DNA of 63,859 nt, the filler included. It is 6 parts of 6 records of this genome, joined end to end, with 100 filler letters (N's around TTAATTAATTAA, not from the genome) between each part and the next. Parts side by side here need not be neighbours in the genome. Positions count along the whole stretch, not along the records: positions 18,739 to 26,240 come from SRR31156797_7535; 5 more parts are not named here. One strand, written 5' to 3'. Shown piece by piece: positions 5,028-56,482 of this stretch. The translations under genes were made by a program, and so were the position numbers. Position 1 is the stretch's first letter; every line of letters begins with the position of its first letter. The notes beneath the pieces were generated by a model. The model did no database searches, was not told the origin of the DNA, and saw only the letters and a list, made by a program, of their open reading frames with translations.

Positions 5028-5260
5028 ATTGCAATGGATGCCCGGCCCTTCCCCCTGAGCTTCTACCTGCCAACCGCCCCGCTTGGTGGCTTTATACGGA
5101 AATAGGGCCGACCGTATTTGATTTGTTCGGCGGCATAAGCCTTGCGAACATCGAAACGGGCTTAAAGATATACGGTGTGCCGCAAGCCCTGTGGTCCGAA
5201 ATAGCTGGAAAACTACTGGTGCTTGCCGACGGGTTGAGGCGAAAGGACGGCGATGACTAA
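4931..5260 (+). CDS. -1 frameshift extension of tail chaperone (gpGT equivalent, DUF1799-like); missing from the ORF track
   Basis: The -1 frame is open from the slippery site to TAA at 5258-5260: KLREFAVWLRDDGIDTCKSCR...DCNGCPALPPELLPANRPAWWLY...RKDGDD*. It ends overlapping the tape measure ATG. Confidence 0.8.
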   Translation, partial: KLREFAVWLRDDGIDTCKSCRIAHRQRTGTEIDCNGCPALPPELLPANRPAWWLYTEIGPTVFDLFGGISLANIETGLKIYGVPQALWSEIAGKLLVLADGLRRKDGDD

Positions 5261-7634: not shown

Positions 7635-7999
7635 TGACCACCATGACGCTCGGCGGATATACATTCGCCTGGAATCCTTCGGAATTCCCTATCCCGATGA
7701 AAAAGCGGTCAACGGCGAGCGTTGAAACCCTTGGCGGCGTCGAGTTTTATTCGTGGGGGCATTTCTGGCCAGGGCAAACATTGACGATGGGCTGGAAACA
7801 TATGCCGACGGCTCAGTATACGCAAATAAGGACATTGTACGAGGCGGATGCTGCGGTCACTTTCAATCCGGGAACGGGTGAAACTTTTACGGTCGAGATA
7901 CTCGAATTTTACGGGGCTGTTCATATCGAACAAAGCGGATCCGCTTCTTATCGAAAAGACGTTCAATTGACCTTGTTAATTCTAAGCGAGGATTCCTGA
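7634..7999 (+). CDS. Distal tail/minor tail protein
   Basis: 121 aa directly after the tape measure gene with TGATG coupling. Confidence 0.6.
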   Translation: MTTMTLGGYTFAWNPSEFPIPMKKRSTASVETLGGVEFYSWGHFWPGQTLTMGWKHMPTAQYTQIRTLYEADAAVTFNPGTGETFTVEILEFYGAVHIEQSGSASYRKDVQLTLLILSEDS

Positions 8000-10900: not shown

Positions 10901-11688
10901 CGGGAGAGGGCAGATACTTTTTAGAGGTTTTGTATAACGAAGAAGCGGTCGGGGAAACCTCCGGCACGGTCGGCTGGTGGGGCGGTAAACAAGATGTCAC
11001 GATCTGGTATTCGGAGGATCACGAGCGGACCTGCCGTGATCCGAGATTAGAGGTTATCCAGAGCGTCCGCGACTTCGAGATGTTTATTTTCAAAGGCGGC
11101 GGTGGTGAGAGTATCAGCTCCGTCGATCCATCAGAAAAATACTGTGTTGTAACCATCGACAGGCCCAATTTAGTCGGGGTTTTTATCGCCACAATAGCGA
11201 GCGTGGTCGCGGTCGGCTCGGCGGCTATTAGTTGCACAATTAACTGCGGTGGCTGGATATACGCCCTGGCCATCCTTCTTTCAATTCTTTTAAACATCCT
11301 GGGCGCGGTCGCCCAATACGCCTATGTGATATGGGCTAAACCCATCGGCCACGAACGGCAGCAGTTACAGGCCACTGCGGATGACACCGACCATCAGCGC
11401 GAAATGGGCGGCTATGTGATCGAACAGAGGATAGACGATCCGTTCGCGGACACCGTCCAAATCTGCCAGGCCGTAGCCGACCGGGAGCTTGCCCTGATCC
11501 AGAACCAGCGGCGGCGGGTCCGGTTTGGTAAGTCGGCGCATCTGCAAGATGAGATCGGAGATACGATCAGGATTCCTCATCCGCAGGATTCAAGCCAGAT
11601 GGTCGACGTTTTTGTGACCGAGCTTGAGCGTCATTGGGAAAAAGGTGCGGGTGTTAACGACAAAATCACCGGATGGAGGCGGCAATAA
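7999..11688 (+). CDS. Large tail-tip/hub protein with beta-propeller-like region and C-terminal hydrophobic hairpin
   Basis: 1229 aa, acidic and aromatic-rich. Has an Asp-box-like motif (TINGGTSW), a hub-like C-terminus (NRVTVTG...HLQDEIGDTIRI) and two hydrophobic segments near aa 1058-1113. Confidence 0.7.
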   Translation: MSVTLNSTLQTAQDGINHRPILELISTQFASDKPFDGSYFNTSDVSETESNLIYLSSGRLAAVYIRDNDIYYKYTDTDRLIWSEVEIVSNVSDLDSVACVELSGGNVGVVWIDTESGYDRIRQMTVGPTGSTVVAASTIATFATASYSVNDVHIGTVTGGDHWLVYRYYESSGETYSLRYRTSTDFSSWGSEQTVTLSGLTATRRKGNPFLIQHSTGGLLIFFDYVDDIRADGAELVNVYQVRTINGGTSWETPEKITNYTVFGESGYCPTAGEKSDASLMLAWHKQSDVLHMDKNTTGWSTECTEAYATDLHFDPATGYLYCLQVYTSGGTKKCCGVVVVDTSDWTVDKVYNTTSSPAYSGLFAADHVQAHRHIGAGHYVPIAVVGDKHVAVINHQSQTITHYNFDDDATYSLTQNVNNIDWHSKQPGIVATQIDAANDRLYVCFVDSYLYRLSLQIGYIDLTEAEDPVSGYSWNECIFAEWSGFDNQTWLMGLNSMRVVPEQDYIILSFSTSVSDWTGRLLVYQISSGGLIYDFNPSDYAGFPYRGALYPVYHDGHIYASIDYESGYGNSDRRGLLDINLASESITYQRPTYATIDDYDLRMKTITNDGRIIMAHYGYGVAIYTIADGSWELFDNTELQGMTEDSNELFGPVAYDESTDTIFTAQPYAGAGSWFGILAFNEIGAFRKGQYLTGAYSAGWSWGSIADLNTGIMDYDLSIAIDGSDVAWATWTRQDTSEYSLKWDKEGLTTELTDYVTGSVRTKWRIDGPSQLTFSLAQGYLFDPSYFPSTLHTVAAKGRRMQLSLGETVSSTDYLQAQGEWIITETKLTYQRGDHPILEVTAEDKRNIWGELHIVATEYFDDQYPEAIIEDLITTHTDLESSDLNLPTMTTRHKMFHQFVDMDLMSMLEDMLAHFDYFAHFETGGDFTLLPVAFETTPDHTYSSAAKIINYSPDDSYSSFVNRVTVTGEGRYFLEVLYNEEAVGETSGTVGWWGGKQDVTIWYSEDHERTCRDPRLEVIQSVRDFEMFIFKGGGGESISSVDPSEKYCVVTIDRPNLVGVFIATIASVVAVGSAAISCTINCGGWIYALAILLSILLNILGAVAQYAYVIWAKPIGHERQQLQATADDTDHQREMGGYVIEQRIDDPFADTVQICQAVADRELALIQNQRRRVRFGKSAHLQDEIGDTIRIPHPQDSSQMVDVFVTELERHWEKGAGVNDKITGWRRQ

Positions 11689-16545: not shown

Positions 16546-17931
16546 CTAATATTGTTGCGATGAGTTTTCGTTATATGTCACAGAACGTTTCCCTGTCCGA
16601 ATATACCACTCAATATGGCGTTCCATCAGTTCCTGGTAACCATCGGACATACTACCATCCCCATAGGACAGCAGTGATGCCTCAACATGGTTCCAACATT
16701 CATCTGCCTCAGCCTCAGTTAAACCACTCTCTTGTTGTAAAGATTCTATAGCATTAACGCGATTACCTAAGGAATACCCGTTAAAAATCGCCACTGCTGA
16801 GCATGCAAGCCAGCTTCCTATCTGCCAGTATTTTTCTATTTCTGTTGTGGTGGCTCTTCCAAAAAAATCGTCACGTGAATCGTAGCTAAAGCGCTCGCCA
16901 AAGGTTGCTGGGGACAGCCATACATGATCCCATAGAGCCACTCCACGCTCAGTGTCTTTTGGTGCAGGTGCCGGGTCAAAAAACTGTGTGCGGTCGAAAA
17001 GCTCATCCGTGTGTATCAAGTAACGTCCTTCACTTCCCTGCCAATTAAAGACCAACCCGATGTGGTGGGCTTCGGTGCCATTTGTTTCTACATAAGCGTT
17101 GTTCACTTTACGTACAGGAATATTGACACTGCGCATAAGATCGGCAAACAGGGATGAAGCGCTGGCACACCCTGAGGTATAATATCTATCCTCTTCCCCA
17201 CGATCCAGGCGGTCGGCTAGCGTATGATTTTCTTGTTGAATTGTGCTTATATTGTTACTTTCAGAATTATGCCAAAGATAATCGTGAAACCACTCTGATA
17301 GCTTTTGCCCCGTCTCTCCCGGAGTACCACCAATTAAGCAATTTTCCTGCTCTGGTTCCTTACTCATAAACCGATAGCCATCTCTTGGGTCCCCGAGAAT
17401 GTTTTCAGTGACCTCATTACGGGAACCTACGTAGACGACATAGTAGAGATTATTGTCAAGAGTAAGATAAGCGGAGAAAAATACTTTGCTACAAAGTAGG
17501 TAAGACAATTCGTGGTCACTCCATTCCTCAAGTCGCCAAGGTACACTACCGCTCATATCTAACCACAGGGCGTGAGCTACCCAGGCGAAATAGACATCCC
17601 GCGCAACAACCTCGTCACGATAGCCTAACCGTGACGAATCATCATTTACATGTGAGTCATTAGAAAGCGGAAGAGAATCAGCAATAGGCAGCGGCTCGTC
17701 GTAATAATAAGCCAAAAAACAATCACGCAGACGTCTTTTCCAGGCGGAAGGCCAGTCGTCATAGAACGTGTATCTACTTGAATCGCTCCCTTCAGGAGGC
17801 CACGTTTCGAATCGAAGTTGTTGCCGAATACGTGGTCGGCGCTCTAAATAATTTTTTAGGCGCAGGATCCCGCGCCATTTAAAGAGAAAAACCAGAAATA
17901 TATTTATTATCGACAATACTCTCCCCACCAT
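16546..17931 (-). CDS. Membrane-anchored hypothetical protein with transglutaminase/papain-like Cys-His-Asp motifs (moron)
   Basis: Long ORF, visibly more AT-rich than the structural genes. N-terminal hydrophobic anchor; GCASASSLFADLMRSVNIPVR...HHIGLVF...LIHTD. GAGGTG RBS favours the ATG at 17931 over 17946. Confidence 0.6.
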   Translation of the reverse strand: MVGRVLSIINIFLVFLFKWRGILRLKNYLERRPRIRQQLRFETWPPEGSDSSRYTFYDDWPSAWKRRLRDCFLAYYYDEPLPIADSLPLSNDSHVNDDSSRLGYRDEVVARDVYFAWVAHALWLDMSGSVPWRLEEWSDHELSYLLCSKVFFSAYLTLDNNLYYVVYVGSRNEVTENILGDPRDGYRFMSKEPEQENCLIGGTPGETGQKLSEWFHDYLWHNSESNNISTIQQENHTLADRLDRGEEDRYYTSGCASASSLFADLMRSVNIPVRKVNNAYVETNGTEAHHIGLVFNWQGSEGRYLIHTDELFDRTQFFDPAPAPKDTERGVALWDHVWLSPATFGERFSYDSRDDFFGRATTTEIEKYWQIGSWLACSAVAIFNGYSLGNRVNAIESLQQESGLTEAEADECWNHVEASLLSYGDGSMSDGYQELMERHIEWYIRTGKRSVTYNENSSQQY

Positions 17932-18325
17932 GATTACACCTCTCATTCTAAGTATTGTGTGAACCTGCGGAAAGATAGTTACAGAATATTATATCATGAA
18001 GCCTATTTTGGTGCTTTACCTATTGCCGGGTCGTGTCGAGAGTATATGATATGAATGGTGTTCAGATTATGGTTTAATCTCGAATTATGCAGCAACATCC
18101 GCGATTTCTCTGTTTCAAGCTCTCTGAGTTCGTTCTTGGCCCGTTGAAGAGCACTGATCCGGGCTGGAGAGCTTGTACTCCATCCACAAGAGGCGAATTC
18201 TCGCATCAAGTGGAGCAGGTTATAGACTCAAAGCTCCATTTTAAGTCTCGCCTGATTGGTATCGAACTTGTGGCAATTGGTTTTGTCCAAACGAAGAGGG
18301 TTCTTGCCTTTCTCATAGCAAATAA

Positions 18326-18637
18326 TCACGGCCTACACATCCCGCACGGCCTAAACCCGGCTTCAATAGCTTCTTCACGGGTCCGGAATACCGCCGTGCA
18401 GTTTTTACACCTATAACCCTGGCAGCCTGGCGCGTGAAAGACCATCGACTTCACATTACCATGGTATCCGTCGGCGGGGGCCAGGGTCGCGCCGACCGTC
18501 CTTATACCCCGCCTCCAATCCCAGGGCGGCACGGCGTTCTCATCTTTCCACAATCCAAGTTGATCGGCCTTGGCCTTTTCTTCTATCGAGGATAGCCGCT
18601 TTGAGTTACTGTATTTGCGATAGTGCCAGGCATAGCC
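18326..18637 (-). CDS. Thermonuclease (SNase) with C-terminal Ada-type metal-binding domain, 5'-truncated
   Basis: GYAWHYRKYS...EEKAKADQLGLWKDENAVPPWDWRR is an SNase C-terminus, followed by YHGNVKSMVFHAPGC...F.TREEAIEAGFRPCGMCRP. Confidence 0.85.
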   Translation of the reverse strand, partial: GYAWHYRKYSNSKRLSSIEEKAKADQLGLWKDENAVPPWDWRRGIRTVGATLAPADGYHGNVKSMVFHAPGCQGYRCKNCTAVFRTREEAIEAGFRPCGMCRP

Positions 18638-18638
18638 G

Positions 18639-18738
18639 NNNNNNNNNNNNNNNNNNNNNNNNNNNNNNNNNNNNNNNNNNNNTTAATTAATTAANNNNNN
18701 NNNNNNNNNNNNNNNNNNNNNNNNNNNNNNNNNNNNNN
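18639..18738. other. Artificial contig spacer
   Basis: N44-TTAATTAATTAA-N44. Confidence 0.99.
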
Positions 18739-18848
18739 GAAGGGGCCGTTTTAACAAGCTTATAGGCGTCCTGCCCGCTTCCTTTACGGTGCAGGCAATA
18801 GGCCAGCAGGTCCTTACCCATTAAGGCTATATTTCGATCAGCCGTCAT
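18739..18848 (-). CDS. 5' end of fourth gene of the TIR-Clp operon (truncated by contig end)
   Basis: AAGGAG RBS overlaps the previous stop; ATG at 18848; MTADRNIALMGKDLLAYCLHRKGSGQDAYKLVKTAP stays open to the contig edge. Confidence 0.65.
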
Positions 18849-18858
18849 TTGTTACTCC

Positions 18859-21552
18859 TTATTCCTTACCGACCGCTTCTCTCAGGTATGATTCCGCTTC
18901 ATCCCAGTTTTCAGCGCGCATGGCGATGCTGCCCAGGAGCAGGCGGGCCCTGGCGGAATAATCATCTTCGTGATTGTCGCTGACGATTTTCTTAAGTCCT
19001 TTTGCGGCCATGTCATCCAAACCGGCCATGGCCGCGGACAGGGACTTGTGAAACTGGACGGCGCGGTCGTCCGGATATCTCTTGTCCATTATGCTGAACA
19101 TCTGGAGGGCCTTTTCCAAATCCTGTCCTTGCAGCAGGGCCAGGCCCCGGATCATTTCCAGTTCCTTCCATTTGCCCGAGCGGTATTTCTTGGCCCTGTC
19201 AGCCAGCTCCAGGATTTCATCCGGTTTCATTTCCGGATCAAACAGCCGGGTGAAAGCCTGCCGGTAGTAGCATTGGGCGGCCGTGCTTTTAAGGGCTTCG
19301 ATTTCTTTTTCCGCATCCGGCGGAATTATTTCCAAACCTTTTTCAAGCAGGTCAATGGCTTGTTCATATCGCCCGCCGGTCATGGCTTCACGCGCGGCCA
19401 GGCTATGGAATACGGCCAGGTCCAGCTTGATTTCAGGAGTTTCAGATTCCGGCCCCATTTTTTGAAAAGCATTTATCGCATCCTGGTAACTACTGTTGCG
19501 ATAGTGGGAAAAACCCAGGTGGTACATAACGGAAGCCCGATTCCGGTCGGTTAGATCGATTTGTTCAAATAGTTCGGCGGATTTTTCAAATTCACCCAGT
19601 CCGAAGCGGCACATGGCCTGGGCAAAGTCAGCCGCCCGGCCCACAATGGCGTACAATTCGGCGGCTTCTGCCAGATTGCCTTCCTGTTCCAAAAGCGGGG
19701 CCAGGTATGCGGCCGCCCGCTTGTCCTTGTAGGAGTCGACGCTTTTGCGGGCCGTTTCCATGGCCTGGGCCGACTGGTCGACGCTGTTGAAGTATTCCAC
19801 CAGCAGCCACAGGCTGTCTGCGGAGAGCCGCTCAATGAAAGCAGGATCCAAATCGGCCAGGAAGCTGCTTTTCAAACCGGAATCAACAGCGGCCAGGCAC
19901 AGCTTTTTCAGCAAATTCTCATTTGCGGGCTCAAGTTGAAGAGCGGCTTCTACCGCATTAAGGGCTTTATCCGGATTTCCTGTCTCCTGGTAACATTCGG
20001 CCAGAATATCAAGGTCTGAAATGGTTAGTTTCCGCTCTTTAAAATAAGGCTCCAGGCAGGAAGCAGCCCGCTCGTAATCGGCAAGATCGAAAAGATAGCG
20101 GGCCAACATGCGATCCCGATCCAGGCCGGCCGCTACCTTTTCAAGCGCCTGGACAGCGTTTTCGGGAGGACGGCCTTTAAAGTACGCGGTCAGGTCGGAC
20201 AGCGATCCTTCACTGACCCAGACTTCACAGTGCAGAACGTCGGTTTCCTCGCCCGGAGGCAGTTTAGCCAGGACTGAAACGCCAAAAGAATCTATAAATT
20301 CACGAACACGGTCGTATTGTCCGTTTTGGGCCAGAAAAAGAGCCAAAATCTGATCCCGCCCTTTTTTTTCAGGCACGGATGAAAAAATCAGTTTTTCGCC
20401 TTCCTTGAGGCCATACCCTCCGGCAAGTTCAATAATATCATCATGCCTGCCTGCCAAGGCCAGCAGTTTAATCAGTTGCTTGTCGCGGCTCTTGGTCTTG
20501 GGCAACCCCTCTATAACTTCCAGGGCGACCTTCAGCCTCATGGAACTGACCAGGTTGCCTATTTTCCCCCAATTATCGATCTTGACAAGAAGCGGTATCA
20601 AGACGCGATTCCGCTCGTCGGACTTGGGCAGGCTCTCGACCAGTTTTATCGCGGCCTTGGCGTCGTCATAGACCTCGGCTCTGTTCCGGATCGCATCAAA
20701 ATCATTCTTACCGGCATAGAGTTTCAGCAGAAGCTTGTCGTATTTCATCTTGAGCGGCAGCTTTTCAAGAAGGCTAATGGCCTTTTCGACCTGATTCCGG
20801 TTGACCGCCATGTTTGCTTCCATCCAGGTCAGTTCTTCGGACTCTCCACCTGCAGCCCTGGCCTGTTTAATCGACTTTTCAAGCTGTTTCCAGTCCTTCA
20901 GATGAAAGTAGCCTTTGCAGGCAAATACCAGGGCCTTTTCGTACGATCCCTTTTCCCTGGTCGTCATTATCCGCGCCCATACCAGGCCGAAAAATAACAT
21001 AAGTAAAAATCCGGCGGGAAGATAGACATGGAGTTCATACATTTCCCCGCCAAACTCCTGAATGCCGGCGCTGAGTATGAAAACAGCGATGACAAAAAGA
21101 AAAGAAGCTTTAAACCCGATCCGTTTTCCCACAAGCCCGCCGAAAAGAAGGGTCACAATAAATTCAATAAATGAGAAGTAGAAGCCTTGAACAGCCTTGA
21201 AAAAAACAAAGTAGAGGATGGCTGTGGAAGCCAGAACAGCCATGGTCTTTTTTGAAGGAAATTGGCTCAGCAGCTTTTCAATTCGTTCGGGCAGTTCATC
21301 TTTATCAATCGAAGAAATTTTTTTATCAATATCGGTTCCAAAAACTTCCGAGGCCGAAACCCGGTTGAGGCTGCCCATAAAGGCAGCGACAATAAAGCCG
21401 CCGGCAGCGATAAGCACCAGCCAATGCTCCTGTTGGGGCATATTGTCGAACCAGAAATCCGGCGTCAGTTCAAATAGAAAATAGTCAAACCTTGCAAGAT
21501 ATGACAAGAGCATTGATAAAAGGTCGAATAATTTTGAATTCATGGCGTCCAT
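18859..21552 (-). CDS. Multi-pass membrane protein with long alpha-solenoid/TPR region
   Basis: 897 aa; several hydrophobic segments in the first ~195 aa, then TPR-like repeats (LAECYQETGNPDKALNAVEAALQLEP, YHLGFSHYRNSSYQDAINAFQK). Confidence 0.85.
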   Translation of the reverse strand: MDAMNSKLFDLLSMLLSYLARFDYFLFELTPDFWFDNMPQQEHWLVLIAAGGFIVAAFMGSLNRVSASEVFGTDIDKKISSIDKDELPERIEKLLSQFPSKKTMAVLASTAILYFVFFKAVQGFYFSFIEFIVTLLFGGLVGKRIGFKASFLFVIAVFILSAGIQEFGGEMYELHVYLPAGFLLMLFFGLVWARIMTTREKGSYEKALVFACKGYFHLKDWKQLEKSIKQARAAGGESEELTWMEANMAVNRNQVEKAISLLEKLPLKMKYDKLLLKLYAGKNDFDAIRNRAEVYDDAKAAIKLVESLPKSDERNRVLIPLLVKIDNWGKIGNLVSSMRLKVALEVIEGLPKTKSRDKQLIKLLALAGRHDDIIELAGGYGLKEGEKLIFSSVPEKKGRDQILALFLAQNGQYDRVREFIDSFGVSVLAKLPPGEETDVLHCEVWVSEGSLSDLTAYFKGRPPENAVQALEKVAAGLDRDRMLARYLFDLADYERAASCLEPYFKERKLTISDLDILAECYQETGNPDKALNAVEAALQLEPANENLLKKLCLAAVDSGLKSSFLADLDPAFIERLSADSLWLLVEYFNSVDQSAQAMETARKSVDSYKDKRAAAYLAPLLEQEGNLAEAAELYAIVGRAADFAQAMCRFGLGEFEKSAELFEQIDLTDRNRASVMYHLGFSHYRNSSYQDAINAFQKMGPESETPEIKLDLAVFHSLAAREAMTGGRYEQAIDLLEKGLEIIPPDAEKEIEALKSTAAQCYYRQAFTRLFDPEMKPDEILELADRAKKYRSGKWKELEMIRGLALLQGQDLEKALQMFSIMDKRYPDDRAVQFHKSLSAAMAGLDDMAAKGLKKIVSDNHEDDYSARARLLLGSIAMRAENWDEAESYLREAVGKE

Positions 21553-21573
21553 ATTACTTCCGGTCTTCTATTT

Positions 21574-22776
21574 TCAGGCGCTCCCGGCTTTTAAAGCCAG
21601 GCGAAGCGACTTGATTTTTCGGCTAAGTTGTTTATCCCGGCTAAGGCTTTCGGCCTTGCCTAAAGCGTCTTCCGCCTCCTGCTTACGCCCCAGTTGCATC
21701 AATGTGGCGCCAAGGCGCAGGTGTATTCCGGGTTCCTCGGGATCAATTTCAAGGGCCTGTTTTATTAAATCGCAGGCTTCGGTCTGCCGATGACACCTGT
21801 TAAGCAAATTGGCCAGGGCCATGTACCCCCTGGAATCATCAGGGCAGCGGCTTAATAAAACCCGCAGGGTCTGTTCCGCCTTGCGGATTGATCCGCCGGC
21901 CGACATTTCATTGGCGATTGTAAGCTCGCGCGGAGGCTCCAGAGCGGCGATCAAGGTTTGCATATCCTGGTAACGATCCTCGGGCCGCTTTGAAATGGCT
22001 TTTATAATAACTTTTTCAAGATGCAGAGGGATGGCGGGGTCCTTGGTCCGGAGCGGGGCCGGGTCCGAGTTGTTCATCCACTCAATCAGTTTGTATTCGG
22101 TGATGCCTTCCGTAAAATACGGCAGGGTTCCGGTGAGCATTTCGTAAAGGGTCATGCCCAGTGAAAAGACATCCACCCTGTGGTCGCCCCGGCGATGAAT
22201 CAATACTTCCAGCGGAGTGTAGAACCTGGTGTGTCCCCCGAATTCGGTTTCAAAAGAACCGGACCTGTCCATAACCGAGGCCATGCCAAAATCCAGGATT
22301 TTGGCCGTGTCTCCTGCTTGTTCAATAATAATGTTTTCCGGTTTAATGTCCCGGTGGACCATTTTCTTGTTGTGAGCCGCATCCAGCCCTTGCGCCACCT
22401 GGAGGGCGTATTTCAAGGCCTTTTCCAGGGGCAGCCGTTTAGCCGTGTTGGGCATGCCGAGAAGCTGGCGGAGCAGTATCCCTTCCACATATTCCATTAC
22501 CAGGGCGTATCGGCCGCCCGCGCTGATAGTGGCAATATACCTGGCGATAAAAGGTTCTTCGTTGAGTTGGGCCAGGGAAGGAATATCGCCCTTGACCAGG
22601 GATTCTTCCTTGGCCCGGTCATGGGGCACTTTAACGGCCACAAAGTCGCCGTATTTTTTTTCGACGTCCGAATAAAGATACGTGGTGGCAAAGCCGCCCG
22701 TTCCCAGGGTTCTTACGTATTTGAAACCCTTGATTTCGATTCCGTTACTCACAGGTCCTTGCTCAGCTTTCCACAA
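21574..22776 (-). CDS. Hanks-type Ser/Thr protein kinase with C-terminal TPRs
   Basis: LGTGGFATTY, VAVK, HRDIKPEN, DFG and DVFSLG motifs; TPR-like C-terminus (ALEIDPEEPGIHLRLGATLMQLGRKQEA). Overlaps the upstream gene by 14 nt. Confidence 0.93.
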   Translation of the reverse strand: MWKAEQGPVSNGIEIKGFKYVRTLGTGGFATTYLYSDVEKKYGDFVAVKVPHDRAKEESLVKGDIPSLAQLNEEPFIARYIATISAGGRYALVMEYVEGILLRQLLGMPNTAKRLPLEKALKYALQVAQGLDAAHNKKMVHRDIKPENIIIEQAGDTAKILDFGMASVMDRSGSFETEFGGHTRFYTPLEVLIHRRGDHRVDVFSLGMTLYEMLTGTLPYFTEGITEYKLIEWMNNSDPAPLRTKDPAIPLHLEKVIIKAISKRPEDRYQDMQTLIAALEPPRELTIANEMSAGGSIRKAEQTLRVLLSRCPDDSRGYMALANLLNRCHRQTEACDLIKQALEIDPEEPGIHLRLGATLMQLGRKQEAEDALGKAESLSRDKQLSRKIKSLRLALKAGSA

Positions 22777-25441
22777 AGGCTATGCGCCCGTCTTTGAGGA
22801 CGGCCTTGTATCCCACGCCCCTGTTCAGTTTACCGGCGGCCAGTTCCCTGGCCAGGGGACGGCCCAATGTTTTTTCAAAAGCCCGGTTCAATTCATGCCC
22901 GCCGCCTCCGCCGACCTGGTCGGCGATAAAGTCCAGGACGTTTTCTTCGGCAGTAATTTCGATTCCTTTTCTAACCAGCATTTCATTGAGCCGTCGCAGG
23001 TTTTGCCTGGCCATTTTCTTAAAGGCGACTTCGTCCAACGGCTTGAAAGGAATCATTTCATCGATCCGGTTCAGGAATTCAGGCCTGAAAGTGCGATCCA
23101 ACTCCTCACGAAGATCCAGGCTGATAATACCTTCGCTCTCTTCCATGAACCCGATGCGGTGCTTGTGACGGTCCAGTATTCGGGCTCCTACATTAGAGGT
23201 CATTACAAAATAGGCTTCGCGGGCGTTAACGGTTTTTCCTCTTGAATCCGTAAGCCGTCCTTCGGAAAAAACCTGCAGAAACAGATCGTGTATCTCGGGG
23301 TGGGCTTTTTCCACTTCATCCAAAAGAACCAGTGAATACTGGTTGCGCCAGAGGAATCCTGTTAACTGCCCCTCCCGGTCATGGCCGACATAACCCGGAG
23401 GAGACCCGACCAGGCGGGATATGGAGTGAGCTTCCTTGAATTCGCTCATATCAAGGCGCAGCATGGACTGTTCACTGTGAAATATGCCGCTGCACAGGGC
23501 CTTGGCCAGTTCCGTTTTGCCTGTTCCGGAAAGTCCGAGAAAGAGAAAAACTCCCCTGGGCCGGGTGGGCTCACGAAGCCCGGCCTGAGCTTGCAACACT
23601 GAATCGGCAATCCTTTTAACTGCTTCATCCTGGCCGACGACACGGCTTTGCAGATAGCTTTCAAGTTGGAGGAATTCCGATTTTCCGCTTTTTTCCAGTT
23701 CCTGAAAGGGAATGCCGCTCATTTCGGATATGACCAGCATCACGCTTTCCGTGTTGACAATGGTTGACTGCGTGGAATTGCCTACTCCGGAATCAGGCTT
23801 ATCCATGGTCTGGGAAAAAAAGCTCAGCGTGGGGATCTTGGCCGTTGTGCAAGCTTGCTCCATAAGGTTAATGGCCTTGTCCGGCAGATAGCGGTCGGAA
23901 ACATACCTGACGGAAAAGTCGACGGCTGCTTCCAGGGCGTCGTCTTCTATGATTACATCATAGTGTTTTTCCATTTTGGGCTTTATACGGGCCAGAAGCT
24001 CCACAGCTTCATCCGGGGACATTTCTTCAACTTCAACAGGTTCAAACCTGCGGTCAAGGGCTGGATCGCCGGCCAGGATGGTCTGATATTCATCCATGGT
24101 CGTGGCCCCGATCATGCGCATCCGCCCCCGCCCGAGGGCTGGTTTGAGCATATTGGCAGCGTCAAGGGATCCGCCGCCCTTGCCCGCGCCAAGAATGGTA
24201 TGAACTTCGTCTATGAATAAAACCATGTCCGGGTCGGCGGCGGCAACGTCCAGGATTTCGGTAAGCCTTTGTTCAAATTCGCCCCGGTACTTGGAACCGG
24301 CCACAAGATTGCCCATGGATATTTCTATGATGCGGATGTTTTTCATTTCTTCCGGCACCTTGCCGGACACGATCCGCTGGGCCAGTCCTTCCACGAGAGC
24401 GGTTTTGCCTACGCCGGGATCGCCCAAAAGCAGGGGATTGTTTTTTTCTCTTTTGAGCAGGCACCTGGCCAGCATGGTCATCTCTTTTTGGCGGCCGATA
24501 ACGGGCGACAGGTCTCCCTGTGAGGCCAGGGCCGTCAAATCTCGTCCTATCTGCCCAAGCACGCCTGGCAGAGGAATGACAAAGCCGGCCGCCGCCTTCC
24601 TGAGGGACTTGATATCGAATCCTATGGTTGCCAGAAACTTTAGGGCGGCGCATTCAGGGTCAAGTGAGAGAAGTCCTAAAACAAGGTCCTTTTCGGACAC
24701 CTGCCGCCCGGCCGCGCCGGCATTGTTGACGGCCGAATTCAAGACCCCCAATGTCTCGCCGTTGGGTTCGATTTCGCCGCCTTCGACCGCTGTTCCGCGA
24801 CCTATGAATCCGCGCATTCTGCGGCGGACCTGCTCCGGTTCACGGCCCTGGTCCGTCAGCAGGGAGCTGAAAAAATGCATTTTGGTCATGGCGCACAGGA
24901 TATGCTCGGCACCGATATAATTATGCTTCATGAAGCCGGCTTCCCAGAGGGCTTCACGAACCATTTCGGCAACCGCGGGTCCGAGTTGTTCTCCCGGAGG
25001 CCATGATACTTCACCCGTGAACGCGGCCACGGCTTCCAAGCCTTCTTCGGTAAGTGTAACCGACTGCATGGACCTGAGGCTGAGAGGAAGGTCGTCTATG
25101 GTCATATCACCGGCCAAAACCGTGACCAGGTTGCCTGATTTACGGCCGGAATTAAGTTCGTTGAGAAATATGTGCCATTCGGCCTTGACCCAGCGGGATT
25201 CGATGTTTTTTCGGGAGGTCCCGACCACAACCATATGCCGGCATTCCCCCAGGGCCTGGTATATGGTTTCCTGAAAATCGGCCTGTCCTGCTTCCTGGAC
25301 GGCTTCTTCGCTAAGGAAAGCCGGGATGCCCCGCTTGGTCAAAAAGTCATAGACCCGGCGGGCATGCACGAGGTCCTTCCCATTTTTGGATATAAAAACA
25401 TTCCAGCGAGGCGTCCTGCCGTCATTGCTTTCAGCGTTCAT
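22763..25441 (-). CDS. TIR domain fused to ClpA/ClpC-type Hsp100 AAA+ ATPase (TIR-ClpN-D1-D2)
   Basis: TIR: VFISK..D...VYDFL..RGI.AF, MVVVGT, SRWVKAEW. Clp_N: HNYIGAEHIL. D1: GDPGVGKT, KYRGEFE, LFIDEVH. D2: GLSGTGKT, GYVG, LLDEVEKAH. IGF loop present. GGAGG RBS. Confidence 0.92.
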   Translation of the reverse strand: MNAESNDGRTPRWNVFISKNGKDLVHARRVYDFLTKRGIPAFLSEEAVQEAGQADFQETIYQALGECRHMVVVGTSRKNIESRWVKAEWHIFLNELNSGRKSGNLVTVLAGDMTIDDLPLSLRSMQSVTLTEEGLEAVAAFTGEVSWPPGEQLGPAVAEMVREALWEAGFMKHNYIGAEHILCAMTKMHFFSSLLTDQGREPEQVRRRMRGFIGRGTAVEGGEIEPNGETLGVLNSAVNNAGAAGRQVSEKDLVLGLLSLDPECAALKFLATIGFDIKSLRKAAAGFVIPLPGVLGQIGRDLTALASQGDLSPVIGRQKEMTMLARCLLKREKNNPLLLGDPGVGKTALVEGLAQRIVSGKVPEEMKNIRIIEISMGNLVAGSKYRGEFEQRLTEILDVAAADPDMVLFIDEVHTILGAGKGGGSLDAANMLKPALGRGRMRMIGATTMDEYQTILAGDPALDRRFEPVEVEEMSPDEAVELLARIKPKMEKHYDVIIEDDALEAAVDFSVRYVSDRYLPDKAINLMEQACTTAKIPTLSFFSQTMDKPDSGVGNSTQSTIVNTESVMLVISEMSGIPFQELEKSGKSEFLQLESYLQSRVVGQDEAVKRIADSVLQAQAGLREPTRPRGVFLFLGLSGTGKTELAKALCSGIFHSEQSMLRLDMSEFKEAHSISRLVGSPPGYVGHDREGQLTGFLWRNQYSLVLLDEVEKAHPEIHDLFLQVFSEGRLTDSRGKTVNAREAYFVMTSNVGARILDRHKHRIGFMEESEGIISLDLREELDRTFRPEFLNRIDEMIPFKPLDEVAFKKMARQNLRRLNEMLVRKGIEITAEENVLDFIADQVGGGGGHELNRAFEKTLGRPLARELAAGKLNRGVGYKAVLKDGRIAFVES

Positions 25442-26240
25442 TCGCTGACACCTCCGAAGTGATAACGTTTAAAGGTCGAACTTTACTAAACAACCGATAT
25501 CATTCACGGCCCAGCGATTTTAACGACACAAGGGTCGGCCTCAATAGAGGCCGGGGAAATTAGTGACAGCGTTATGACGAATTACAGGTTTTGCGGACTC
25601 CGCTTCCCAATCTCATCGTATTAAAGAGATATAGTCACGCAAGAAACTATTTTTAATACAGCAATCGATTTTCCCCTGGTTGCGATCTTTCGGCCGGGCG
25701 CCTTAAATACACAAAATAGCAAATCATTTCATTAGATTAACAGCCCAGTCCCCAAATCAGTTTAATGAGTAGGCCGATCTATTTTTGTTATCATACTCAA
25801 GGCCCCGGGTCAAGAAAACCGGGCTTAAACCGCCCAACACCAATCATTATTACACTCATTAAACTGACAGACATCCAATTTAATATTAATCTTGACACCC
25901 ATTTTTAATAATAATTGAGAAAAATCTGCTTTAATTCGGAATAAAACGCCCTCTAAATAAAAAATAACGAGTTGGGTTGAAATATTGGTTTCGTATATAT
26001 AATTCCGGAGAAATTAAATTTAAAAAAGGCGCTTTTCTTTGAAAAAAGACGTACCTATTCTATATAAGGCATGAAACCTAATCTTAGCAGGAAAATAGGA
26101 ATGTGATTACTCAGGAGGGTGAAAAAGCCTGGGCGCAGATTTTGACGCCGCCCAGCCAGCGAAGTCCGGATGACCGCGCGGCTTTGATCATGGAGTCAAT
26201 ACGGCCGACTGCACGGTGGAAAAGGCCGCCGTAACCTTGC

Positions 26241-26340
26241 NNNNNNNNNNNNNNNNNNNNNNNNNNNNNNNNNNNNNNNNNNNNTTAATTAATTAANNNN
26301 NNNNNNNNNNNNNNNNNNNNNNNNNNNNNNNNNNNNNNNN
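26241..26340. other. Artificial contig spacer
   Basis: N44-TTAATTAATTAA-N44. Confidence 0.99.
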
Positions 26341-26380: not shown

Positions 26381-27217
26381 TTATAAGTTTTCTAAAAAGT
26401 TTTTTAATAGTCTAAGTGAAACTTCCTTTCGGTACTCTTTATCTGATCTTTGATCAGTAATAGGAGTAATTATCTTAGAATATTCATCTATAATTTTTTG
26501 TATTTTATTTGTATCTAATTTTTTGTATTTGATAATCTTTTTCTCTAACTCTTTGCTTTTTACAATGGTTGGTGCAACTGCTCCAAAACTAAGTCTGATA
26601 TCCTGAATCTCTTCATAAGTATTAATCTCTGCCATCCCCATAAAAGAGAGCTTGGCTAAAGCAATAGAGTTTCTGGTTCCGACTTTTTTAAACTTTATTT
26701 TATTAAATCTATCAAGTGGAATAATAATCTGACTTAAAATTTCATTTTTTTCCAGAATGTTTCTTCCCGGAGCAGTGATGAAATCTTGAATTTCTACTAT
26801 TCTGCTTGAAGCTGTTTTTTCCAGTAGTAGTTTCGTTTCGCATGCATATAGTAGTGGAAGTGAATCTGCTACAGGGGAGGAATTACAAATATTCCCTCCA
26901 AGTGTAGCTGTATTTCGAATAGCCGGCGAAGCCATAGTTGCCATAACTTCTTTGAGATAACTTGGAACCACATTACTTTCCATTATATCAGAACAAGTGG
27001 CACAAGCGCCAATATATAATATGTTTTCTTCAACTTTAATATCTTTTAACTCAGGAATATTTGATATAAAAACTACAGGTTTTTCTATTGTCAAATCCCC
27101 TGTCCAACTTTTATTTTTAATCATTAAATCACTACCTCCTGCAAATAGAAGAGTATCTTCTTTGCTGATAATGTTCAGTGCTTGATCCAGTGTTTTTGGG
27201 ATATACGAATTTACCAT
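26381..27217 (-). CDS. Xanthine dehydrogenase/CoxM-family FAD-binding subunit
   Basis: FAGGSDL, IRNTATLGGNICNSSPVAD and PITDQRS..EYR motifs. Confidence 0.9.
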   Translation of the reverse strand: MVNSYIPKTLDQALNIISKEDTLLFAGGSDLMIKNKSWTGDLTIEKPVVFISNIPELKDIKVEENILYIGACATCSDIMESNVVPSYLKEVMATMASPAIRNTATLGGNICNSSPVADSLPLLYACETKLLLEKTASSRIVEIQDFITAPGRNILEKNEILSQIIIPLDRFNKIKFKKVGTRNSIALAKLSFMGMAEINTYEEIQDIRLSFGAVAPTIVKSKELEKKIIKYKKLDTNKIQKIIDEYSKIITPITDQRSDKEYRKEVSLRLLKNFLENL

Positions 27218-27681
27218 ATTTCCTTCCCCCTTTCAGCAGCCAGTTCAATAGCTTCAATGATCATATTGTATCCGGTACATCTGCAGAGATTTCCGGAAAT
27301 TCCCTCTTTGATTTGCTCATGATTTGGATTTTTATGTTGTCTAAATAAAGCCTCACTAGCCATCATCATACCGGGAATGCAGAAACCGCATTGTACGGCA
27401 CCGGCATCTTCAAAAGATTTTTTTAAGATGTTGTATCTTTCTGTTTTCTCAAATCCTTCGATAGTTATGATCTCTTTTCCTTCAATATTTGCTACAGGAA
27501 CAACACATGAATTAATTAATTTTCCATCAAGCAAAATTCCACAAGCTCCACATTCGCCGTCACCGCAACCCTCTTTTGTAGCAAATAGCCCAAACTCTTT
27601 TCTTAGCAGATCAAGAGTTCGCATTAAGGGATTTATATCTATCTCTATATTTTTATAATTTAAATTAAATTTTATTTTCAT
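27211..27681 (-). CDS. Xanthine dehydrogenase/CoxS-family [2Fe-2S] subunit
   Basis: KEGCGDGECGAC...NSC, QCGFC.PG and GNLCRCTGY motifs; RBS favours the ATG at 27681. Confidence 0.93.
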   Translation of the reverse strand: MKIKFNLNYKNIEIDINPLMRTLDLLRKEFGLFATKEGCGDGECGACGILLDGKLINSCVVPVANIEGKEIITIEGFEKTERYNILKKSFEDAGAVQCGFCIPGMMMASEALFRQHKNPNHEQIKEGISGNLCRCTGYNMIIEAIELAAERGKEIW

Positions 27682-27736
27682 AATTATACTTCCTTTTTTA
27701 TGCATTTTAAAAAACTAAAATCAAGAGATTATTTTT

Positions 27737-27807
27737 GCCACGGATAAACACGGATAAAGTCAAAATTAAAGAGATTTAATCCATGTGCATTAGTGTTAAT
27801 CTGTGGC
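27737..27807. repeat. Intergenic imperfect inverted repeat (miniature element)
   Basis: GCCACGGATAAACAC ... GTGTTAATCTGTGGC (13/15 complementary), with an internal tandem CACGGATAAA. Confidence 0.55.
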
Positions 27808-27827
27808 TCATAATCTTTTGATATTAC

Positions 27828-29963
27828 CTACACTAGCTTAATCAATTCTTCCGGTTTTACAGGTATCTTATTAATCTCTATATCCAGAGCATTAGAAATA
27901 GCTAATGAATACGCAGGGGCAGTTCCAATAAGTGTAAGCTCTCCAAGTCCCTTTGCTCCATAAGGCCCATGAATATATGGTATGTTCATAAGCTCTGATG
28001 TAATCTTAGGTACATCTTTTGAGGTAGGAATGATATAGTCAGTTATGCTGTTTTGCATAATTTTACCGTTTTTAGCTTCCATAACTTCCATTCCACCATA
28101 ACCAAGACCTTGGATAAGCCCGCCCTCTATTTGGCCTCGAACAACTAATTCGTCAATTGCTTTACCAATATCATAAATAGCCCAGATATGATCAACATCA
28201 ACTTCACATGTTATAGGGTCAACACTTACTTCTACTACGTTTATTCCCCATGAGTATGAGTTGTAAACATCACCTATAAAGTTTTTACCATCCCAATCAA
28301 AACCTTTTGGTTGCTTGTAGTTTGTAATAATCTCCTGCTCTTCTCCATCTTTCCAGATTGCTTTAAGCTCCTCAGCTCCGTCTTGAACTAGTTTTCCTAC
28401 AACCATAATTGTTCTTGATGCAACTGTAGGGCCTGAATCCAACGTGAAATCAGTGTCCGGATTGTTATAAACTATTTGTTCTATAGGCAGTTCAAGTGAA
28501 TTTGCTGCAATCTTTCTCATTGTTGTATGAACTCCCTGTCCCATCTCAACATTCGATAAGAGTAGATTTACTTTACCCTCAGGAGTTTTATGCAGTTTCA
28601 CTTTCGCTTTGATATAGTCTTGTTCACCACTTCCGGTAAATCCGCCTCCGTGAAAGAATAGCGACATTCCGATTCCCTTATATTTTTCAGGGTTATTTTT
28701 GTTATACTCTTCAAACTCTTCTCTTTTTTTTCTATATGAGCTTAATTCGTCTACTCTCTCTATCATTTTATCCATGATAATAGGATCACGCATCTCACCG
28801 TTTGTAGATGATTTATCATACTGTTTCATTAAGTTATTTATTTTGAATTCAAGAGCATCTAAACCGAGTTCTTTTGCACATTTTTCCATATGAGTTTCCA
28901 GTGCAAAGAATGATTGCGGAGCACCGAATCCTCTGAAAGCTCCACTTGGAACTGTATTTGTTGCAATTGCTCTTCCTCTAACGAAAACATTCTCTACGTT
29001 ATAAGCTCCAATTGCTGCAAATATTGATCTTTGAATAACTATTGTAGAAAGAGTAAGATAAGCTCCTCCGTCAAGTTTAACATCAGCATCCATACCAATA
29101 ATTTTATGATCTTTATCGATATATGAAGTTAATGTAATAAGAGACGGATGTCTCTTAGGTGTAACTTCTACATCCTCTTCTCTATCAAAAATAAGCTGTA
29201 CGGGTTGTTTTGCTTTATATGCTGCAAGCGCAGCATGACCGGCAATTAATGAAGGGTAGTCCTCTTTTCCTCCAAATGCTCCACCTGTAGTAGACTGGAC
29301 AATTCTTACATTTTCAGGTTCAAATCCCATACACTGTTCAACAGCAGCTTTTACATAATATGGACACTGCATAGAGCCGTGTACTTCAACTTTATTATCT
29401 TTATATACTCCCACTAAACCTTGAGGTTCAAGATACATCTGCTCCTGATAACCTGTTTTATATTCACCGCTTATTACATATTCAGCTTTTGATTTGATAG
29501 CTTCTAAATTATTTTTTGAATAAGTATAATTAGCGAAACAGTTATCTTCACCGTATATTGGATTGTCAGATTTCAGGCTTTCTTCTAATGAGAAGACTGC
29601 ACCTATATTTTCATACTCGACCTCTATTTCAGCGATAAGTTTTAAGATTGTTTTTTTTGATTTACCTATCACTAAAGCAATAGGTTCTCCTATATAATTT
29701 ACAACTCCGTCTGCGAAGAAGGGTTGATCATTTTCAATTATTTTTACTGCATTCATTCCCGGAATATCATTTTTATCAACGATAAAATAATTTTCGGGAA
29801 GTTCAGGATATTTTATCGATTTAATTTTTGCTCTTGCTCTGTCTGAACGGACAGTTTTGGCAAATAACATATTTTCGAAATCTGTATCAGCGATATATTT
29901 TGCTTTTCCTAATAATTTATCCTCTGCATCTATTCTGATAACTTTATCTTCTATTTTTTTCAT
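27828..29963 (-). CDS. Xanthine dehydrogenase-family molybdopterin-binding subunit
   Basis: YLEPQG, GGAFGGKE, AFRGFG, EMGQG, TVASR, GQIEGG and AKGLGE (catalytic Glu) motifs. Confidence 0.93.
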   Translation of the reverse strand: MKKIEDKVIRIDAEDKLLGKAKYIADTDFENMLFAKTVRSDRARAKIKSIKYPELPENYFIVDKNDIPGMNAVKIIENDQPFFADGVVNYIGEPIALVIGKSKKTILKLIAEIEVEYENIGAVFSLEESLKSDNPIYGEDNCFANYTYSKNNLEAIKSKAEYVISGEYKTGYQEQMYLEPQGLVGVYKDNKVEVHGSMQCPYYVKAAVEQCMGFEPENVRIVQSTTGGAFGGKEDYPSLIAGHAALAAYKAKQPVQLIFDREEDVEVTPKRHPSLITLTSYIDKDHKIIGMDADVKLDGGAYLTLSTIVIQRSIFAAIGAYNVENVFVRGRAIATNTVPSGAFRGFGAPQSFFALETHMEKCAKELGLDALEFKINNLMKQYDKSSTNGEMRDPIIMDKMIERVDELSSYRKKREEFEEYNKNNPEKYKGIGMSLFFHGGGFTGSGEQDYIKAKVKLHKTPEGKVNLLLSNVEMGQGVHTTMRKIAANSLELPIEQIVYNNPDTDFTLDSGPTVASRTIMVVGKLVQDGAEELKAIWKDGEEQEIITNYKQPKGFDWDGKNFIGDVYNSYSWGINVVEVSVDPITCEVDVDHIWAIYDIGKAIDELVVRGQIEGGLIQGLGYGGMEVMEAKNGKIMQNSITDYIIPTSKDVPKITSELMNIPYIHGPYGAKGLGELTLIGTAPAYSLAISNALDIEINKIPVKPEELIKLV

Positions 29964-34597: not shown

Positions 34598-34697
34598 NNN
34601 NNNNNNNNNNNNNNNNNNNNNNNNNNNNNNNNNNNNNNNNNTTAATTAATTAANNNNNNNNNNNNNNNNNNNNNNNNNNNNNNNNNNNNNNNNNNNN
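34598..34697. other. Artificial contig spacer
   Basis: N44-TTAATTAATTAA-N44. Confidence 0.99.
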
Positions 34698-40894: not shown

Positions 40895-40994
40895 NNNNNN
40901 NNNNNNNNNNNNNNNNNNNNNNNNNNNNNNNNNNNNNNTTAATTAATTAANNNNNNNNNNNNNNNNNNNNNNNNNNNNNNNNNNNNNNNNNNNN
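40895..40994. other. Artificial contig spacer
   Basis: N44-TTAATTAATTAA-N44. Confidence 0.99.
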
Positions 40995-56382: not shown

Positions 56383-56482
56383 NNNNNNNNNNNNNNNNNN
56401 NNNNNNNNNNNNNNNNNNNNNNNNNNTTAATTAATTAANNNNNNNNNNNNNNNNNNNNNNNNNNNNNNNNNNNNNNNNNNNN
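56383..56482. other. Artificial contig spacer
   Basis: N44-TTAATTAATTAA-N44. Confidence 0.99.

Follow-up and report, generated by a model that had tools for sequence, protein, structure and literature searches.

Hsp100/Clp proteins are ATP-dependent hexamers. TIR enzymes, the NAD+-cleaving modules of immune proteins, are active solely as ordered oligomers and have been described on scaffolds of the STAND, SAM-octamer, Argonaute and filament types. This report concerns a locus in which a TIR domain and a Clp protein are joined in one polypeptide. It occupies a short metagenomic contig, the second of six chained into the stretch of DNA analysed here (the window, 63,859 nucleotides (nt)) and consists of four genes on the minus strand: g1, encoding the fusion of a TIR domain with a Clp-type double AAA+ ATPase; g2, encoding a Hanks-type Ser/Thr kinase with a TPR tail; g3, encoding a membrane protein with a long TPR region; and g4, of which the first codons are present. 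With a little less than even confidence, the locus is read here as a rare, lineage-restricted conflict-type module (immune or abortive-infection-like) built around the TIR-Clp fusion.

Closest described systems

ClpC from Bacillus subtilis and ClpA from Escherichia coli share with g1 two AAA+ modules with Walker A and B motifs, KYR and GYVG pore loops and arginine fingers, as well as a ClpC-type fold of the N-domain and an (I/V)GF loop, and g1 lacks a long M-domain, as does ClpA. In contrast to these proteins, g1 possesses an N-terminal TIR domain, has neither M-domain nor UVR motif, carries His instead of Arg at the sensor-2 position of its second AAA+ module (D2), scores far below the NCBIfam cut-offs and forms a long branch with a single sister. 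TIR-STAND/Avs proteins, plant TIR-NLRs and SARM1 also tether a TIR domain to a ring-assembling module, and the TIR domain of SARM1, an NADase, is the best solved match for the g1 TIR in a Foldseek search (rank 28, E=1.7e-5), whereas the NTPase of g1 is a double-ring Clp unfoldase and not a STAND protein. A STAND core in g1 was rejected, as matches to nSTAND3, NACHT and nSTAND6 were below cut-off and confined to the P-loop, where they spanned some 30 residues.

McsB marks substrates for ClpC, and in McsA-McsB-ClpC operons, a canonical example of which is the unrelated locus L001, a kinase gene adjoins the Clp ATPase gene, as at the locus studied here, and the Clp N-domain is a docking site. Unlike McsB, g2 is a Hanks Ser/Thr kinase with TPRs and not an ATP:guanido phosphotransferase, neither McsA nor CtsR is encoded at the locus, and one of the two GTEH sites of the ClpC N-domain, which we take to be phospho-Arg-type sites, is not kept in g1 (the second one, in an alignment with B. 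subtilis ClpC).

According to the accessible text of one report, a TIR and TPR gene pair (BcTir/Tpr) gives phage defence (10.1101/2023.05.26.542521), and in the main text of a systematic preprint on TIR systems a TPR domain is proposed as the presumable part of the effector ThsI of Thoeris VII/VIII that senses cyclic ADP-ribose (10.64898/2025.12.03.692087). The present locus resembles these systems, as far as those texts describe them, in having a TIR gene beside TPR genes, and differs from Thoeris in that its TPR proteins are without detectable homologues beyond a near-identical relative. Thoeris was rejected, as PADLOC gave no match to ThsA or ThsB for the four proteins and the sole TIR match was SAVED_TIR (E=0.005); no ThsA-type effector (SIR2/SLOG, Macro, transmembrane (TM), caspase-like) was detected among the domains of g1-g3 and of P0122, the orthologue of g4. 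A Clp-type AAA_2 module is also found in Dodola DolB and in PDC-M37B (PADLOC E=4e-27 and 2e-30, respectively), and Dodola was rejected, as these matches cover D2 alone (residues ~580-752), correspond to generic AAA_2 and are not accompanied by DolA (DUF6414) on the contig. The NTP-dependent conflict systems described by Kaur et al. (2020; PMC7159879) for multicellular bacteria combine TIR, caspase, cyclase, Ser/Thr kinase, TPR/WD40 and TM elements around an NTPase with a variable N-terminal effector; the passages on 'Clp' in the accessible part of that article deal with ClpN repeats on vWA, ClpS and Clp-like proteases, and none with a TIR-Clp unfoldase.

An earlier note on the window had not recognised the gene combination as a named system. 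This stands, since with PADLOC g1 and g2 matched generic AAA+ and kinase domains and g3 and g4 matched nothing, and a literature search, with supplements outside its reach, yielded no TIR domain fused to a ClpP-coupled motor and none of the names TIR-Clp, TIR-ClpA/B/C, TIR-AAA or TIR-Hsp100. The words Clp, AAA and kinase do not occur in the main text of the TIR-system preprint (10.64898/2025.12.03.692087).

Domain structure of the TIR-Clp fusion

Pfam matches in g1 comprise TIR_2 (E=1.5e-13, residues 15-133), a weak Clp_N (1.8e-4), AAA in the first AAA+ module (D1; 1.3e-21) and AAA_2 in D2 (2.1e-52), with additional matches to AAA_lid_9 and ClpB_D2-small. Together with the hydrophobic segments of g3, the Pfam results agree with the domain architecture that had been proposed from the letters alone (TIR-Clp, kinase-TPR, membrane TPR protein and a fourth gene). 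An AlphaFold2 model of g1 residues 1-330, obtained with 42 aligned sequences, had a mean pLDDT of 84, with values of at least 94 over residues 11-140 of the TIR domain, 85-93 in the second domain and low confidence in the linker (residues 145-151). A Foldseek search with this model identified the two folds as TIR and ClpC-type N-domain, the second domain lying on ClpC/ClpC1 N-domains with template-modelling scores of 0.80-0.83 (normalised to the target) and root-mean-square deviations of 2.1-2.4 Å.

The putative catalytic residue E88 is invariant in all 42 aligned TIR sequences and aligns with the Glu of 'WSKFE' in a solved oyster TIR-STING protein; the g1 TIR also aligns to that of plant RPV1, this alignment stopping one residue short of E88. 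All 14 columns that are invariant in the subfamily are retained in g1, including F16, S18, D23, W84, V85, E88, W89, K101, G103 and N104. As both the catalytic-type Glu and every subfamily-invariant residue are retained, an enzymatic constraint on the TIR domain is suggested, and the domain is a TIR fold with a conserved catalytic-type Glu and a candidate NADase.

Aligned with B. subtilis ClpC, g1 forms two blocks (residues 166-537 and 558-886), and the ClpC M-domain (residues 405-467) is without counterpart, the gap being bridged by g1 residues 537-558, with no match to PF02151; with E. coli ClpA, one aligned block is formed. The Walker A and B motifs of both modules, both pore loops and the Arg-finger motifs are intact. 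In the sequence alignment RIGF (residues 762-765) of g1 falls on the VGF loop of ClpC, so that its IGF is a putative ClpP-docking loop.

Phylogeny of the Clp part and the sister protein P0002

A tree of 32 sequences drawn from the 120 best matches to g1 was calculated in the quick mode of IQ-TREE with SH-aLRT support values. It included the Clp parts of g1, of its 97%-identical relative P0001 and of P0002, 15 short relatives without M-domain, 9 ClpC and 5 ClpB-like proteins. The Clp parts of g1, P0001 and P0002 form a clade (support 100) with a stem of 1.22 changes per column, nested in a 'short ClpC-like' group devoid of the M-domain (support 99) and apart from canonical ClpC. Sensor-2 Arg is important for ATP hydrolysis in ClpB; at the sensor-2 position of D2 (g1 residues 846-853, window ~22883-22906, minus strand) GH instead of GAR is present solely in these three among the 32 proteins. 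Of the 32 aligned proteins, 23 possess the (I/V/L)GF loop, g1, P0001 and P0002 among them, whereas none of the five ClpB-like rows does. None of the NCBIfam equivalog cut-offs was reached by g1, with scores of 649 for ClpB (cut-off 1232), 602 for ClpA (993), 580 for ClpV (885), 529 for ClpK (1900) and 514 for ClpG (1900). Because g1 scores below every NCBIfam Clp cut-off and shares a clade-specific change of the sensor-2 GAR to GH, it is probably not a housekeeping Clp protein.

P0002, the only sister Clp, is encoded on a contig of 8,047 nt, has 1,395 residues and is 54% identical to g1 over the Clp part. At its N-terminus a caspase domain, TM segments and a nucleotide cyclase are present where g1 has the TIR domain, which suggests that N-terminal effectors have been swapped on a shared Clp chassis.

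A different N-terminal arrangement was observed in a Spirochaetales metagenome-assembled genome (MAG), in which a 928-residue double AAA+ Clp-type protein (L002:5206-7992, plus strand) has TPRs (residues ~40-290) replacing the Clp N-domain; its gene adjoins the genes for acetate kinase and enolase. Loci L003 and L004, which match g1 at residues 297-867 and 314-867, respectively, may be of the same TPR-Clp kind.

How rare the TIR-Clp join is

In a word-indexed search of 5.8 billion clusters with g1, a TIR domain was present on one of the 120 best matches listed, namely P0001, which is encoded on a 16,846-nt contig; apart from P0001 and P0002, the listed matches are generic Clp proteins with at most 47% identity over most of their length. 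A full HMMER scan with g1 residues 1-330 against 1.84 billion representatives gave 4,347 matches at E<=1e-3, and among the best 150 of these, TIR and Clp_N were both matched solely by P0001 and P0123, and Clp_N alone by P0002. P0123 (328 residues, 45-47% identical, encoded on a contig of 1,183,255 nt) terminates precisely where the N-domain does. It may be an adaptor-like protein in its own right, with TIR and Clp_N alone, or the product of a split TIR-Clp gene, the first half of which it would represent. A scan of JGI metagenomes added one more relative, L024, which is 63% identical over g1 residues 2-203 and whose TIR-Clp gene runs off a contig of 2,364 nt.

When one genome per GTDB species was searched for the join, 74 pattern matches led to 23 confirmed loci, none with a TIR domain; all 23 are generic Clp proteins of 31-42% identity, whose matches begin at g1 residue 72 at the earliest. 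Residues 1-330 matched 18 plasmid records from Clp_N onward alone (in the 15 listed, no match starts before residue 146) and one record of a phage collection over residues 164-330, on the Clp_N side, alone; in IMG/VR there were 14 pattern matches, none of which was confirmed. Judging from these searches, the TIR-Clp fusion is very rare, patchy and lineage-restricted.

Relatives of the TIR domain

The TIR domain of g1 is itself no orphan, as its subfamily is large (the 4,347 representatives at E<=1e-3) and its relatives are 40-63% identical. A Hanks kinase on the same polypeptide was found by phmmer in 6 of 148 TIR relatives, five of which were confirmed by Pfam and two of which are kinase-TIR-TM-FGE-sulfatase proteins. 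FGE-sulfatase accompanies the TIR domain in 9 of 148 relatives, caspase in 1 of 148 and WD40 in 7 of 98, and further architectures comprise WD40-Ras/Roc-TIR, TIR-caspase-CsgG-like, a TIR-TM-TPR protein of 1,984 residues, DUF4062-TIR and tandem TIRs. Kinase, TPR, TM and caspase, which surround g1 or are present in its sister, are therefore elsewhere joined to the same TIR subfamily in single polypeptides. In the accessible part of PMC7159879, TIR fusion partners of this kind are among the architectures described for conflict systems. Two receptor-like proteins, P0128 (1,011 residues) and P0175 (822 residues), combine a Ser/Thr kinase with a TIR domain of the same subfamily, TM segments and FGE-sulfatase; the TIR domain of P0128, which its source names a Desulfovibrio MAG protein, is 56% identical to that of g1.

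The kinase and TPR genes and their arrangement

In g2, a Pkinase domain (E=2.5e-40, residues 19-270) is followed by two to three TPRs (residues ~303-381). A GTGGFA loop, K49, D143 (HRD), D162 (DFG) and TPLE are all present and, as judged by these motifs, the Hanks kinase of g2, to which the TPR tail is attached, is intact. The PADLOC and NCBIfam matches of g2 are confined to its kinase domain and remain below the family cut-offs; they comprise PD-T4-6 (PADLOC E=6e-50), PknB, MAD6 (NCBIfam score 136, cut-off 460) and PglW (78, cut-off 990). No MADS or BREX partner genes are present on the 7.5-kilobase (kb) contig.

Five hydrophobic segments at residues 44-196 of g3 precede a TPR-rich region of about 700 residues, for which Pfam gave TPR families alone. 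Lys and Arg residues cluster in two loops (63-102 and 142-147) and behind the fifth segment, and the loop 167-176 is free of them. Because of this distribution the positive-inside rule places the TPR region in the cytoplasm, with short loops alone predicted outside. The proposal of the earlier note that the membrane TPR protein senses a trigger at the envelope does not fit this predicted topology, and no observation directly supports the relay that it postulated from there through the kinase to TIR-Clp. Among 7,999 candidates scored as homologues of g3, P0121 (96% identity) alone passed, and the ESM Atlas returned generic TPR clusters alone.

The earlier note had recommended recovering gene 4 and the genes beyond it, and a known system revealed downstream would have counted against its reading. 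Through its 36-residue stub the orthologue P0122 was indeed found, on the same 16,846-nt contig as P0001, and it marks no known system, being another TPR protein (643 residues). In JGI metagenomes, 66 pattern matches to P0122 yielded no confirmed homologue. g3 and P0122 show TPR-level similarity alone (E=5e-5) and g2 and g3 show none. A complex prediction for g1 residues 1-330 with g2 gave a score of 0.00 in a run without controls, which is no evidence either way.

The four genes are encoded on one strand with an overlap of 14 nt between g1 and g2 and gaps of 21 nt (g2-g3) and 10 nt (g3-g4), as first noticed in the letters; the overlap hinges on a TTG start of g2, and an in-frame GTG 24 nt downstream would leave a 10-nt gap instead. 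Shine-Dalgarno sequences are present before g1, g3 and g4, and the start of g2 is less certain.

Conservation of the neighbourhood

Two longer assemblies contain the locus and both extend about 9.3 kb downstream of it. In run X1 it forms the last 7.5 kb of a contig of 16,792 nt, which is probably not independent of the window DNA. In run X2, from a different study, the 16,846-nt contig covers positions 18739-26149 with 287 differences over 7,411 nt and no indels. This 96-97% relative keeps all four genes, with mostly conservative amino-acid changes (27 of 892 residues in g1 and 34 of 897 in g3). By a rough argument that is not a dN/dS estimate, this suggests fewer amino-acid changes than unconstrained nucleotide divergence would give. 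The four-gene synteny is seen in the 96% relative alone and is species-level conservation only. The TIR-Clp gene of L024 is preceded, at a distance of 22 nt, by a gene (L024:256-1707, plus strand) for a single-pass membrane protein of 483 residues with repeated 'YL..YP.G' helical units and a weak match to YfiO (24.7 bits, cut-off 25).

Proposed mechanism and competing explanations

By analogy with described proteins we infer NADase activity, hexamer formation and the existence of kinase targets. Like other Hsp100/Clp proteins, g1 would form an ATP-dependent hexamer, the ring of which would hold six TIR domains close together, and cleavage of NAD+ or signal-making by the TIR domains would require either that the ring assembles or that the N-domain is engaged by a substrate or adaptor. 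The kinase g2 and the membrane-anchored, cytoplasmic TPR scaffolds might set the timing through phosphorylation and recruitment. As output, NAD+ would be lost or a nucleotide signal made, and ClpP-dependent proteolysis might accompany this.

A conflict-type module is favoured because the TIR domain is conserved and of the catalytic type, the effector is swapped in the sister protein, the TIR subfamily keeps telling company, the clade is rare and evolves fast, and the operon is tight. Several points weigh against it. The retained ClpP loop and the ClpC-type N-domain would fit a plain regulated protease, and the many TIR relatives that look like receptor kinases (kinase-TIR-TM-FGE-sulfatase) suit ordinary signalling equally well. 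PADLOC yields generic domain matches only. A defence-island, prophage or mobile-element context is unreadable from a contig of 7.5 kb whose neighbours in the window are unrelated. The neighbourhood, which homologues were expected to keep, is conserved in the 96%-identical relative; in the 63% relative L024 the upstream gene is similar in kind to g3, but is non-homologous to it (no significant similarity) and lies on the other side of the TIR-Clp gene. With g3 and g4 homologues apparently restricted to the near-identical relative, synteny across divergent lineages lacks support.

The main rival, less probable but serious, is that the locus serves regulated proteolysis or signalling, the kinase and membrane TPR scaffolds selecting or marking substrates for a ClpP-coupled accessory unfoldase, with the TIR domain as a homotypic docking domain or a sensor of NAD+. 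Docking through TIR could bring the motor to proteins of the same subfamily, for example kinase-TIR receptors, in order to dismantle or degrade their assemblies. The IGF loop, the ClpC-type N-domain and the intact pore loops of g1 would be expected of such a protease, and a kinase beside a Clp gene has its precedent in McsA-McsB-ClpC (locus L001). The TPR-Clp fusion at L002, among housekeeping genes, indicates that TPRs can bind substrates or adaptors on behalf of such motors. This TIR subfamily is frequent in receptor-like kinase-TIR-TM-FGE-sulfatase proteins, and a cytoplasmic TPR array in g3, as predicted by the positive-inside rule, is in keeping with the rival reading. However, a docking domain accounts less well for the retention of the catalytic-type Glu and of every subfamily-invariant residue, which suggests enzymatic constraint, and for the presence in P0002, in the position of the TIR domain, of two enzymatic domains of effector type. 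Extreme rarity and a fast-evolving clade (the stem of 1.22) would be unusual for a core regulatory protease, and the presumed phospho-Arg-type role of the GTEH sites fits poorly with the loss of the second one.

A bolder version of the conflict-type reading, which we regard as unlikely, is that the unfolding motor itself is the immune sensor, in which the N-domain and pore would 'taste' an invader- or stress-derived substrate under the gating of kinase and TPR proteins, whereupon the six TIR domains would become ordered and active as an NADase or as the synthase of a signal; the N-terminal domains would be swappable warheads, as with caspase and cyclase in P0002. If this were true, Hsp100 rings would join STAND and MoxR as immune NTPases that swap effectors, a class to which they have not been assigned before.

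With a TIR domain on a double-ring unfoldase competent for ClpP, the scaffolds known for TIR enzymes would be extended by a novel type, in which immune signalling based on NAD+ meets the ATP-driven unfolding or degradation of proteins, both of them ancient machineries. The sister with caspase and cyclase suggests a modular chassis and not a one-off accident, and the kinase-TIR, TIR-TPR, TPR-Clp and TIR-caspase fusions, taken as Rosetta stones, lead to a wiring hypothesis in which bacterial TIR domains would be under Ser/Thr-kinase control.

Carriage by a mobile element, with the locus as a module of a phage or another element for superinfection exclusion or counter-defence and not for chromosomal immunity, is very unlikely. 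The record chains the locus with a contig of phage tail genes that include a tape-measure protein, the 5' leader is rich in AT, and the sequence at which the assembly breaks occurs in other contigs as well. Nevertheless, the six contigs range in GC content from 0.35 to 0.56 and one encodes enzymes of the xanthine-dehydrogenase type, so that the chain is not one genome; no phage or mobility gene occurs in the 7.5 kb, and residues 1-330 of g1 are unmatched in IMG/VR, with a single phage match confined to residues 164-330. Least probable of all is that the genes are chance neighbours or loosely co-regulated and that the fusion is a recent, possibly non-functional accident, for although the neighbours are not common to divergent relatives, the genes overlap by 14 nt or lie 10-21 nt apart on one strand, the fusion recurs at 97%, 63% and 45-47% identity, and all motifs are intact, with conservative changes in the relative.

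Contig context and position of features

The GC contents of the six contigs chained in the window are 0.535, 0.515, 0.346, 0.562, 0.413 and 0.414 in order, and they are connected by five identical, artificial spacers of 100 nt. Because the pieces are unrelated contigs, adjacency across the linkers is void and the flanks are uninformative on the locus; the record is a concatenated bin or mixture and not one genome. The TIR-Clp locus is the entire second piece (18739-26240), a complete contig of 7,502 nt, and g4 is truncated at position 18739 by the contig end and not by the window. The features of the locus and the linkers are compiled in Table 1.

Table 1. Positions of the genes, domains and other features of the TIR-Clp contig, and of the linkers, in the window
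Feature	Position in window	Strand	Basis or remark
g1, TIR-Clp fusion, 892 residues	25441..22763	-	Open reading frame (ORF), Pfam; strong Shine-Dalgarno GGAGGTG 7 nt before ATG
g1 TIR domain, residues 11-143	25013..25411	-	TIR_2; WVKAEW motif at 84-89, putative catalytic E88
g1 Clp N-domain, residues 154-285	24587..24982	-	Weak Pfam Clp_N; model resembles ClpC/ClpC1 N-domains
g1 AAA+ D1	23831..24544	-	Walker A K346, Walker B E412, KYRG pore loop 384, DRRF Arg finger 463
g1 AAA+ D2 and D2-small	22784..23686	-	Walker A K642, Walker B E709, GYVG pore loop 683, sensor-2 GH not GAR
g1 IGF loop, I763-G764-F765	23147..23155	-	Counterpart, in the alignment, of VGF in the ClpP-docking loop of B. subtilis ClpC
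g2, Hanks Ser/Thr kinase with C-terminal TPR, 400 residues, TTG start	22776..21574	-	ORF, Pfam
g3, 5-TM and TPR protein, 897 residues	21552..18859	-	ORF, Pfam TPR families, hydrophobic segments
g4 stub, first 36 codons of a TPR protein	18848..18739	-	ORF cut by contig end; orthologue P0122
AT-rich leader/intergenic region	25442..26113	-	No ORF of at least 60 codons, no Rfam match, tRNA or notable repeat
Promoter-like site	25544-25517	-	One site; count of such sites at chance level
GC-rich contig end	26114..26240	-	Maybe last ~42 codons of a co-directional upstream ORF (six-frame translation)
Linkers	18639-18738, 26241-26340, 34598-34697, 40895-40994, 56383-56482	no strand	N44-TTAATTAATTAA-N44

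About 800 nt upstream of g1 had been described as poor in ORFs and partly AT-rich, which is correct: the 799 nt at positions 25442-26240 have a GC content of 0.42 overall and 0.36 in the core and contain no ORF of 60 or more residues. The GC-rich last ~130 nt may be the 3' end of a co-directional gene entering from beyond the contig. Several small contigs and one of 6,641 nt overlap positions 26110-26240 in run X2, and the long assemblies stop here; at this 5' margin of the locus the segment is a repeat or the point at which strains branch. On the 7,502-nt contig no Rfam family and no tRNA were matched, promoter-like sites (7 found, 6.2 expected) and terminator-like sites (14 found, 11.4 expected) are at chance level, and a single inverted repeat, of 14 nt, was detected. 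No segment of the leader recurs elsewhere in the window.

The first contig resembles the tail region of a phage or prophage. An ORF of 793 codons with phage minor-tail and lambda tape-measure domains (window 5253-7634, plus strand) is followed there by one of 1,229 codons without Pfam match (7999-11688, plus strand). Just before the linker, an ORF of 75 codons (18326-18553, minus strand) encodes an Ada metal-binding domain (PF02805, E=2.9e-6) and adjoins an ORF of 466 codons (16546-17946) without Pfam match. The third contig, with a GC content of 0.35, carries genes for molybdopterin dehydrogenase subunits of the xanthine or CO dehydrogenase type (26381-29963, minus strand) and clearly belongs to a genome different from that of the TIR-Clp locus.

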